Shown one piece after another: positions 23,578 to 44,769 of a DNA stretch of 64,000 nt (position 1 is the stretch's first letter; each line of letters begins with the position of its first letter). Origin of the DNA: Candidatus Jordarchaeales archaeon. Its GTDB lineage: Archaea; Asgardarchaeota; Jordiarchaeia; Jordiarchaeales; Freyrarchaeaceae. The position numbers were made by a program, and so were the translations under genes. Under the pieces are notes generated by a model, which was given only the letters and a program-made list of their open reading frames with translations, ran no database searches and was not told where the DNA came from. Where the stretch lies: assembly GCA_038858525.1 (NCBI GenBank), contig JAWCFL010000001.1, forward strand, positions 2,053-66,052. The letters run 5' to 3'.

Positions 23578-23722
23578 AAGGATCCCCTCACTGATTCGCT
23601 CAAATAAAGACGCTGAATCTAAGAATTAAGAAGGAATATATAAATGCTTTTTCACATCAAAACCTCAAAAATTAAGTATCTTCACGTCTAATCATGGAAA
23701 ACAAAAATATGACGGAGGTTGG

Positions 23723-23812
23723 TGGGCGGGCCAGGATTTGAACCTGGGTCCTCCACGGTGTCAACTTCGCCTCTTCTTTGTGTGGCGTCATAACCAGCTA
23801 GACTACCCGCCC
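23723..23812 (-). tRNA. Intron-containing tRNA (anticodon unresolved; one parse gives GAC = Val)
   Basis: Reverse complement reads GGGCGGG-TA-GTCT-AGCTGGTTA-TGAC...GACCCAGGTTCAAATCCTGGCCCGCCC-A. The acceptor and T-arm are canonical; the 90-nt length implies a roughly 16-nt intron in or next to the anticodon loop. Confidence 0.65.
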
Positions 23813-34850: not shown

Positions 34851-35189
34851 TTAATATATCCGCCACGTGTGTCTGCAGATGGTGCACCTGAGGAAGGTTG
34901 TTGACGCTTCATCAGCTCTTCGTGTTTGAACTTGCCAGTAGTACGCTGTAGTATTGCCACATTTTGGACATATGGCTTTCATAGTAGGCATTGTTTTTAA
35001 TTGCTGGTCATCCTCGAGTATCAACGTTTTATCCTTAGGTGAATGTTCTATCTCTCTCTTAACGACAAATCTTTCTTTGTTACTAAATATAGGCCTTTCT
35101 TGATGACCGCAACTTCTACATATAAGCCTAATTTCACCTTTCTCTTTTTCAGGGTACATTAACATACCACACTTAGGGCAGAAGTCCAA
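34851..35189 (-). CDS. tfs: Transcription factor S (TFS, RpoM-like)
   Basis: 112 aa; N-terminal Zn ribbon CPKCG...CRSCG; C-terminal Zn ribbon CPKCGNTTAYYWQVQTRRADE...CTICRH with the acidic hairpin. Confidence 0.88.
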   Translation of the reverse strand: MDFCPKCGMLMYPEKEKGEIRLICRSCGHQERPIFSNKERFVVKREIEHSPKDKTLILEDDQQLKTMPTMKAICPKCGNTTAYYWQVQTRRADEASTTFLRCTICRHTWRIY

Positions 35190-35249: not shown

Positions 35250-35651
35250 TCACTCCACTTCCTTACTTAATTCCTCTACAACCTTTTTGAGGAGGAGCGT
35301 GAAGCCCAGCACTAAGTTCTCAAAATTATCCTTGAGAGGAACTTTGGAGTTAATTAGGGAAGCTATTGAGATCGCGACATCTTTTATTTCTATTTTTCCT
35401 TTTAACCAAGCGTATCCTATTAGGGCTTCTGCAGCATCGCTTAACCCGTATTTATCCTGTCTTGATGGAAGGCGAGAACGTAATCCTGACGCTTTTAGCG
35501 CTGTTGCAAGTATAGACCCCGGAAGCTTTGTTTTCTTTACTTCGCCTGTAGCAGTAAATAGTGCTAAGCTATATATTAAGTTAGAGACCCCATCACCTAT
35601 TCTTGCGTATTGTTTGTTTAGTAAGATCTTACTAAAGGATTGCAGCTTGGT
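35250..35651 (-). CDS. RNase III-like (mini-III-like) domain protein, in frame directly downstream of the rpo11 stop, with no ATG/GTG/TTG start
   Basis: Hand translation of the minus strand gives *TKLQSFSKILLNKQYARIGDGVSNLIYSLALFTATGEVKKTKLPGSILATALKASGLRSRLPSRQDKYGLSDAAEALIGYAWLKGKIEIKDVAISIASLINSKVPLKDNFENLVLGFTLLLKKVVEELSKEVE*. Two RNase III-like blocks are present (IGDGVSNL and DAAEALIGYAWL). The only candidate starts are CTG or ATA. Confidence 0.45.
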   Translation of the reverse strand, partial: TKLQSFSKILLNKQYARIGDGVSNLIYSLALFTATGEVKKTKLPGSILATALKASGLRSRLPSRQDKYGLSDAAEALIGYAWLKGKIEIKDVAISIASLINSKVPLKDNFENLVLGFTLLLKKVVEELSKEVE

Positions 35652-35960
35652 TTACCCTCCCGTAGAGGACTTAACTTTACTTAATTCGCTAAAGAATAAA
35701 TCGCTGATCTTAGTAAGAGTGTCTTTAAGTCGTTTAATAGCGTCTCTTAATGCATCTTCAGGGGGGACCCCTTGGTTTGTCGTTATGTAAATTTTCGGGT
35801 TCGAAAGAAGAGGGTGGTCTATTCTGTAACCTGCAAAAACGACGTTTTCATCGTCTAGCAAGGCTTTTTTTAATAACGTACATAAAGTGTGATCTTCCCC
35901 CTCTATTTCCAGCTCCAAGTGATTTTCTGTGCGTTTTGTCACGCGTACCTTCAACCTCAT
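35652..35960 (-). CDS. rpo11: DNA-directed RNA polymerase subunit Rpo11 (L)
   Basis: 102 aa; ...ENHLELEIEGEDHTLCTLLKKAL...VVFAGYRIDHPL... Confidence 0.88.
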   Translation of the reverse strand: MRLKVRVTKRTENHLELEIEGEDHTLCTLLKKALLDDENVVFAGYRIDHPLLSNPKIYITTNQGVPPEDALRDAIKRLKDTLTKISDLFFSELSKVKSSTGG

Positions 35961-35969
35961 TCACCTCTT

Positions 35970-36545
35970 CTAAAGCTTTGATTTGCCATAATCAATCGAG
36001 ATTTTCCTTTTTTCCTTATTGCCGCATGTACTGCAAGTTAAGACCCCGTTGCTCTTTGGGTCCAGTGGAGAGCCGCATTTAGAGCAGAATGCCAAAACGA
36101 CTCCTAAATTTTTACCGATAGTGGATAACTGTATGAGCTCGCTTCGAACTTCGATTATACGTGCCTTCACTATGTCTCCGATCTTAAAAGCATCTGACGG
36201 CTTATCGATGAACTGGTTACTTATCTGAGATACGTGAATTACTCCTGAATATGGCGATGAAAGAGTCTTTCCTCCAATCCTTGCGATGTCAACCATACTT
36301 AAAATTTTTCCCGTATTAACGACCATTCCCAAAACTAAGCTACCTTTCTTGATGAATGGATGGGATTCGAAGGGGATAACCTTAACGCGCCTCTCCACTT
36401 TGTCTATAAGCACTATTCCTGCATGTGAGGCAAAAATTATACCTCCCTCGTCATATGTTCCTTCATTCGGCGAAAATTCCTCTATAACACCCAACCAGTC
36501 GCCTGGCAAGACGAAGCTGCCAGTTTTAGGTCTCTCCGCGCTCAC
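35970..36545 (-). CDS. csl4: Exosome complex RNA-binding subunit Csl4
   Basis: 191 aa; N-terminal domain plus S1 domain plus C-terminal Zn ribbon CSKCGSPL...CSTCGNK. Confidence 0.85.
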   Translation of the reverse strand: MSAERPKTGSFVLPGDWLGVIEEFSPNEGTYDEGGIIFASHAGIVLIDKVERRVKVIPFESHPFIKKGSLVLGMVVNTGKILSMVDIARIGGKTLSSPYSGVIHVSQISNQFIDKPSDAFKIGDIVKARIIEVRSELIQLSTIGKNLGVVLAFCSKCGSPLDPKSNGVLTCSTCGNKEKRKISIDYGKSKL

Positions 36546-44289: not shown

Positions 44290-44553
44290 TTATGCTGCTC
44301 GGAAAAGCCAAGGTGCTTTTTGTATTAGCATCCAGTGGAGGAATATTACTGATATTATAGTTAGAATTAATCCAACTGCTAGTAGTTTCGTGGCGTAGCT
44401 TGGATTATACACGTTCTTTGTGGCCTCATAGGCGAGGGTGATCCCTATGAATCCGATAAATATTAGGATCGCTACAGCGATTCCTTCTGTTAAATATTGG
44501 TCTTGAAAGTTTGTGTTTATGAAGCCGAAGCTTATTTGGGAAGGATTTAGCAT
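44290..44553 (-). CDS. Hypothetical small membrane protein
   Basis: 87 aa, 2-3 TM segments. Confidence 0.25.
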   Translation of the reverse strand: MLNPSQISFGFINTNFQDQYLTEGIAVAILIFIGFIGITLAYEATKNVYNPSYATKLLAVGLILTIISVIFLHWMLIQKAPWLFRAA

Positions 44554-44769
44554 GAGATGAATCCCGCCGCTGAGAACAAACAGAGAGAAAACTACGAAAG
44601 CTGCGGCAAGAAGTATGTTTGGTGGATTACGTAGCCAAGTTATCCTCTTTGTTACCGTTTTCCTCGTCTTTGTTACCGTTTTCCGTAGCCACGCTACAAT
44701 TTTCGCTGATGCTTTTCTGGACAGCTTCTTCCCTCCTGAAAAGCTATCTGTTAATGTAAGTTAAAGTTT

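Follow-up and report, generated by a model that had tools for sequence, protein, structure and literature searches.

How a reading frame without a canonical start codon could be translated, and whether it is a gene at all, is the question raised by a locus in a 64,000-nucleotide stretch of a Candidatus Jordarchaeales archaeon (contig JAWCFL010000001.1; the whole stretch is called the window here), where a frame with RNase III-like motifs opens directly behind the stop codon of rpo11 on the minus strand. Translation of this strand between 35200 and 35960 gives Rpo11 of 102 amino acids, from the ATG at 35960 to the TAA at 35654-35652, and the same frame continues past the TAA for 133 sense codons, opening with TKLQSFSKILLNKQYARIGDGVSNLIYSLALF, then running through LSDAAEALIGYAWLKG and ending in SKEVE before the TGA at 35252-35250. 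The first ATG, GTG or TTG is codon 114, with none in codons 1-113, and the frame is therefore missing from a list of open reading frames (ORFs) built on these three starts. A preliminary description of the locus had claimed just such a clean 133-codon frame, in phase with rpo11 and directly after its TAA, with two RNase III-like motif strings and no ATG, GTG or TTG before the first of them; the translation bears this out, as it has no internal stop and contains both strings verbatim. The plus-strand ORF that covers the region, which had been called implausible, indeed has no match in Pfam.

I consider it probable that the frame is an independent, functional gene of the Freyarchaeota (Asgard), coding for a single-domain PF11469 protein of 131 amino acids that is co-transcribed with its neighbours, started at a CUG and probably a nuclease. 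The gene is not hidden, as had been thought, because it is already annotated in GenBank entry JAHAWQ010000003.1, where it starts at the same CTG, two codons past the rpo11 stop. The closest database protein (P0001, 131 amino acids, "hypothetical protein KIH04_00825") comes from a Candidatus Freyarchaeota metagenome-assembled genome (MAG), the contig of which shows 0 mismatches to the window over 6,396 nucleotides (nt). It is a real and conserved gene that has been deposited before, and its family is known, though biochemically uncharacterised, and its sole unusual feature is the probable CUG start, apparently coupled to rpo11.

The frame encodes an RNase III-like protein of the RNase III fold. 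The profile match that would be expected of such a protein is found with PF11469 (Ribonucleas_3_2), which scores 68.5 bits where the gathering cutoff is 25, far above chance (E = 9.2e-19), with 1-92 of its 119 positions covered, and PF11469 is present in all orthologues examined. The P. furiosus protein 1ZTD in the PDB, the only solved structure of PF11469, is matched with E = 3e-11 by sequence and 1.6e-33 with the family profile, and an AlphaFold2 model built from 74 homologues, with a mean predicted local distance difference test (pLDDT) score of 96, superimposes on it in Foldseek with a template modelling (TM) score of 0.81-0.84. A scan against NCBIfam gave no meaningful match. The family is small (192 cluster representatives at E <= 1e-3 among 1.8 billion), and its members are stand-alone proteins of about 120-160 amino acids. 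The 74-sequence family alignment shows no variation at G17, D18, N22 and E73 and at least 90% conservation at D70, and all five residues are present in the window protein. Asp18, Asn22, Asp70 and Glu73 align to D44, N48, D107 and E110 of Aquifex RNase III, and G17/D18 are equated with G43/D44 in profile alignments to Drosha and Aquifex RNase III. Analogy with RNase III and Mini-III makes the protein a probable homodimeric, Mg2+-dependent endonuclease of double-stranded RNA (dsRNA) without a dsRNA-binding domain (dsRBD), which would use Asp18, Asp70 and Glu73.

In the alignments to Drosha and Aquifex, the position of the first metal-binding Glu (E40 in Aquifex, E41 in E. coli) is taken by Ala14, and the preliminary description was right that the first catalytic Glu is not conserved. 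Together with the observation that relatives have TTG where the window has TTA or CTA, the absence of this residue of canonical RNase III could indicate that the start codon was lost (for instance by TTG to TTA at codon 8) and that the frame is a silent or decaying pseudogene, the inactive relic that had been put forward as an alternative. However, the same position is Ala in 64 of the 74 family members, and also in the Mini-III of B. subtilis, which is a catalytically active enzyme, so that the missing Glu characterises the family and does not point to decay. The frame is moreover intact over 131 codons with every family-invariant residue, and the gene is under purifying selection, with pairwise ratios of nonsynonymous to synonymous substitution rates (dN/dS) of 0.11-0.17 over the whole gene against its orthologues (for the window against the related lineage L003, dN is 0.084 and dS 0.735, a ratio of 0.115). 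A second lineage (L008, L011, L016 and L017) likewise lacks a canonical start, yet its gene is conserved. A relic is therefore very unlikely.

Compared with the type structure of its family, 1ZTD (P. furiosus hypothetical protein Pfu-631545-001), the window protein has the same size, the same single all-helical domain and the invariant G-D...N and D..E residues in common, whereas its N-terminus is among the shortest in PF11469 and its gene differs by the non-canonical CTG start and by a place directly within the csl4-rpo11 operon; the P. furiosus gene does not adjoin rpoL, unlike the PF11469 gene of Thermococcus barossii, which lies near it. With class 1 RNase III (Rnc; PF00636/PF14622; Aquifex aeolicus, E. 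coli) the GDxxxN and DxxE motifs align, and the remaining catalytic acids, equivalent to D44, D107 and E110, are found as D18, D70 and E73. However, the protein departs from the ERLEFLGD signature by its Ala at the first Glu, it is without the C-terminal dsRBD (131 amino acids, a single helical domain, no dsRBD match), and it stays below the PF00636/PF14622 thresholds, PF00636 giving 16.7 bits against a cutoff of 27 with the second motif alone matching. Its sequence relatedness to the Aquifex-type enzyme is marginal (hhalign probability 40%). Mini-III (B. subtilis MrnC/YazC; PDB 4OUN, 6TNN) is likewise a lone catalytic domain of about 130-140 amino acids without a dsRBD and also has Ala at the first-Glu position (LALAYIGD, verified against PDB 4OUN/6TNN), but it belongs to another sequence family (hhalign probability 6%, 18 columns aligned), it is bacterial and not archaeal, and it has Thr where PF11469 retains the D107-equivalent Asp. 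The task of Mini-III, as the title of PDB entry 6TNN gives it, is the maturation of 23S rRNA on the 50S subunit.

The comparison of orthologous loci that had been proposed as a check covers seven further lineages of Freyarchaeota/Jordarchaeia, with the junctions aligned by codon, and shows that related genomes carry a separate gene. In the five closest lineages the column of the proposed start reads CTG (window), TTG (L002) and CTG (L003, L005 and L006), and it is the sole one of 15 all-Leu columns in these five that is confined to CTG/TTG; the others vary among TTA, CTA, CTT and CTC, and no Leu codon is used less often in the window than CTG (9%). The boundary of the coding sequence maps to this column: insertions or deletions that change the phase are confined to the stretch between the rpo11 stop and the CTG, and none is found downstream of it. 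Codons 2-9 (QSFSKILL) vary at 8 of 8 third positions and at 2 of 8 second positions, and thus evolve as coding sequence, even though they lie upstream of the internal TTG or ATG chosen by gene callers in some relatives. At the positions of Ile7 and Leu8, 66 of 74 family members keep I/V and L/M, residues 4-8 form a helix in the AlphaFold2 model (pLDDT 92), and homologues that start with ATG begin at the same point (MEDELSRILLN in archaeon GB-1867-035, L051; MDDLKKIA; MKNVEGIL). Between the TAA and Ser5, the CTG is the sole near-cognate initiator besides a very poor AAG. Gene calls for the orthologues P0003-P0005 (L003 3001, L005 3001, L006 3001) start at an internal TTG at the ninth or tenth codon, and calls from an internal TTG or ATG cut 7-8 conserved N-terminal residues, while P0007 (L009 735) loses 34; the PF11469 orthologues in these Freyarchaeota MAGs are systematically mis-started. 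Of the four alternatives in the preliminary description, the comparison favours a non-canonical initiator with translational coupling, and of the two codons named there, CTG and ATA, it favours CTG. Judged from these alignments, CUG is the most likely initiator, which would be served by a Shine-Dalgarno (SD) motif and possibly by re-initiating ribosomes.

The SD-like motif in question is a GGAGG in the last codons of rpo11, and every Freyarchaeota orthologue keeps a GGAGG near the rpo11 stop. That of the L008 group comes after this stop, so that the motif does not merely reflect Gly-Gly codons. In the window, 18 of 55 gene-like ORFs have an SD-like 5-mer ahead of them, where control codons give 2.8 +/- 1.7, with spacings of 3-13 nt, and neighbouring genes have a GGAGG or GGTGA at the same spacing. 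The CUG is thus placed at a functional SD distance (10 nt) and less than about 10 nt from the upstream stop (6 nt). In Haloferax volcanii, termination-reinitiation works at +5 nt, is about 60% lower at +13 and is gone by +22 (PMC10666635). As in the archaeal termination-reinitiation pairs (Huber et al.; PMC10666635), the two genes are unidirectional, here with a gap of +6 nt and with the SD in the final 15 nt of rpo11; in typical coupled pairs, by contrast, the genes share 4 or 1 nt and the restart is at ATG or GTG, whereas here the restart codon would be CUG and the coupling is a likely one. GGAGG occurs 122 times on the plus strand of the window and 59 times on its minus strand. A crude count of the first canonical start of the 55 gene-like ORFs gives TTG in 26, ATG in 20 and GTG in 9.

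The RNase III-like gene would accordingly be transcribed together with csl4 and rpo11, and initiation would take place at the near-cognate CUG, decoded as Met. Ribosomes would either bind the SD anew or re-initiate after termination on rpo11, either route being possible because GGAGG lies 10 nt and the rpo11 stop 6 nt upstream of the CUG, and with so weak a start codon the nuclease would remain scarce compared with Rpo11. The RNA of the junction, folded as a single sequence, is unremarkable (z = -0.86). UCCUCU in Ser/Pro codons for the Rpo11 C-terminus (YCCYCY in the consensus) stands 3 nt upstream of GGGAGGG (35655-35671 of the window, minus strand) and forms with it a 7-bp consensus hairpin in six lineages, at -5 kcal/mol; no compensatory changes were found in this six-lineage consensus. 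Such a hairpin could occlude the SD until a ribosome finishes rpo11, and I do not claim that it does.

A start further downstream, at the near-cognate ATC 35627-35625 (Ile7), is unlikely, though the annotation of relatives gives it some substance: the Prokaryotic Genome Annotation Pipeline (PGAP) called an ATA in this column in L008, ATC is allowed as an initiator in table 11, and the canonical starts of relatives lie one or two codons downstream of it. However, the ATC lies 24 nt past the rpo11 stop and 28 nt past GGAGG, which is beyond both the range of re-initiation and the SD spacings of the window, codons 2-6 upstream of it show coding-type substitutions, and the homologues that start with ATG include the stretch upstream of it.

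The same junctions bear on the Rpo11-RNase III-like fusion by readthrough of the TAA that was raised in the preliminary description; on this view the readthrough would be programmed and the downstream frame would lack an initiation site. The window frame shares the phase of rpo11 and opens directly after the TAA, and the phase is the same in L002, L005, L009 and L008, but rpo11 is in phase 1 in L003, L004 and L015 and in phase 2 in L006 and L007, and L011 differs from the near-identical L008 by a phase-changing insertion or deletion. Since the phase takes all three values (0, 1 and 2) among the orthologous junctions, the phase shared in the window is accidental and a fusion is not the conserved mode of expression. 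Relatives have canonical starts (TTG or ATG) of their own, distant homologues stand alone, and Bathyarchaeia carry theirs on the opposite strand. The recoding reported for Jordarchaeia is of UGA to selenocysteine only, and pyrrolysine recoding is confined to Sifarchaeia (PMC9723677); the events in a review of archaeal recoding are at UGA and UAG, and UAA is nowhere mentioned in it. Recoding to pyrrolysine or selenocysteine, tried as a route for readthrough, is inapplicable to TAA. Readthrough is thus highly improbable. That a sequencing or assembly error made the TAA, or destroyed an ATG or TTG start, deserves hardly any credence: the source is a metagenome-assembled genome, and the only other record of the organism, 100% identical over the same 6,396 nt, is maybe not independent, but a stop stands at the end of rpo11 in 8 of 8 distinct orthologous junctions and CTG in the same column in 4 of 8, a pattern common to several junctions that excludes a single error as the cause and with it the suspected point error in the stop codon.

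Several observations weigh against independent translation from the CUG as proposed here, and against the nuclease function. The CTG is not universal in the clade, as its column reads CCC in L009 and GCG in the L008/L011 lineage, and the start called by PGAP in L008 is the ATA further downstream. The comparative set comprises about six to eight partly related lineages, which makes codon-column statistics weak, and the case for CUG is comparative throughout. GGAGG was judged SD-like by its motif. The archaeal initiation factor aIF1 discriminates against non-canonical start codons in vitro (PMC6237735; PMC8211752), and initiation at CUG is for this reason probably inefficient and the output low. 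In the literature on PF11469/Ribonucleas_3_2/1ZTD I found one bioinformatic use of the family's hidden Markov model, no functional study and no paper showing cleavage of RNA by any member of the family.

As for the variable column, CCC in L009 and GCG in L008/L011 are each preceded by an ACG, 6-7 nt past GGAGG, and L009 also has a downstream ATG. The L008 group, with a 54-59% identical protein, has no ATG, GTG or TTG before the GD motif. The region concerned is at 2960-3010 in L008 and in L011, and at 1460-1510 in L016 and L017. Because the CTG column varies in L009 and in the L008 group, the comparison points to turnover of the start codon around a fixed SD, and not to one fixed codon. An ATG that overlaps the rpo11 TGA in L008 and opens an out-of-frame mini-ORF of 10 codons, ending 4 nt before the ATA, was considered as a relay for re-initiation and rejected, since the mini-ORF differs in frame and length in the near-identical L011. 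A more far-reaching proposal, which I put forward only tentatively and rather doubt, is that near-cognate initiation (at CUG, possibly at ACG in L008/L011 and L009) is a selected and conserved mode of expression across Freyarchaeia, driven by the SD and perhaps by termination-reinitiation, that the nuclease is thereby held at a small fixed fraction of Rpo11, and that the placement beside rpoL, csl4 and tfs in three phyla reflects a real partnership with the RNA polymerase or the exosome.

Table 1. Features at the rpo11 locus, in positions of the window.
Feature	Position	Strand	Remarks
csl4 (exosome cap subunit), coding sequence	35970..36545	-	upstream of rpo11; PF14382 and S1 domains
rpo11 (rpoL), coding sequence	35652..35960	-	102 amino acids; PF13656, E = 7e-24
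GGAGG, SD-like motif	35656..35660	-	in the last rpo11 codons, 10 nt upstream of the CTG
CTG, proposed initiation codon	35643..35645	-	6 nt past the rpo11 TAA
RNase III-like protein (PF11469), coding sequence	35250..35645	-	131 amino acids; stop TGA 35252-35250
Codons 2-9 (QSFSKILL)	35619..35642	-	upstream of the internal TTG/ATG picked by gene callers in some relatives
Motif 1, ARIGDGVSNLIYSLALF	35556..35606	-	Gly17 and Asp18 (35594-35592), Asn22 (35582-35580)
Motif 2, LSDAAEALIGYAWLKG	35397..35444	-	Asp70 (35438-35436), Glu73 (35429-35427)
Antisense ORF, spurious	35287..35790	+	167 amino acids; no Pfam match; opposite two conserved genes
tfs (TFS/RpoM-like), coding sequence	34851..35189	-	downstream neighbour; PF01096, E = 2e-18; TTG start after GGTGA

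The surroundings of the gene (Table 1) are conserved, and the csl4-rpo11-...-tfs neighbourhood that had been described from the window alone recurs in the orthologous loci. All Freyarchaeota loci have dph2, a methyltransferase gene, csl4, rpo11, the RNase III-like gene, tfs and rtcB, and in archaeon GB-1867-035 the order is csl4, DUF2067, rpo11, RNase III-like, Endo_dU, tfs and PCNA. In about 30 Bathyarchaeia contigs (among L012-L049) the PF11469 gene is likewise found between rpo11 and tfs, but on the other strand. Thermococcus barossii (L053 1091-4387) has csl4, DUF2067, rpoL, a gene for 438 amino acids without a Pfam domain, and the RNase III-like gene, while in P. furiosus (L052) the PF11469 gene is not linked to rpoL, the linkage having been lost. 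In a Promethearchaeota contig it is not linked to rpo11, and a tfs-like gene is about 3 kb away. The recurrence of the linkage across three phyla suggests a role tied to transcription or RNA processing. The missing calls of tfs in L002 and L009 were looked at as further non-canonical starts, but both genes have ordinary TTG starts and were simply missed by the gene caller.

ORF finders limited to ATG, GTG and TTG miss the RNase III-like gene, and since gene callers truncate its orthologues (P0003-P0005 and P0007), annotations of PF11469 in Asgard MAGs need checking. As a candidate for initiation at CUG in an Asgard archaeon the locus is clean and has comparative support, and start-codon selection in Asgard archaea bears on the archaeal-eukaryotic transition. 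It also draws attention to an uncharacterised family that is found repeatedly beside rpoL, csl4 and tfs in Asgard archaea, Bathyarchaeia and Thermococcus. As most archaea are considered to be without RNase III, an enzymatic and substrate assignment for PF11469 would be useful; the present finding is a lesson in annotation and not a new kind of system.

The window contains 123 open frames that are 90 codons or longer; nine have no canonical start within their first 40%, and the RNase III-like frame is the sole one of these, among those checked, with a significant Pfam match; the scan of the window gave nothing else convincing among long frames without a canonical start. An open frame at 44290-44760 on the minus strand (156 codons, first canonical start at codon 70) has a sub-threshold match to ExoD (15.7 bits) and may be a short membrane-protein gene or noise. 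Elsewhere in the window, a tRNA gene of 93 nt at 23720-23812 on the minus strand scores 51.9 bits with the Rfam tRNA model, while ARAGORN reports an undetermined isotype and a four-base anticodon; the product is probably an archaeal tRNA with an intron in its gene.
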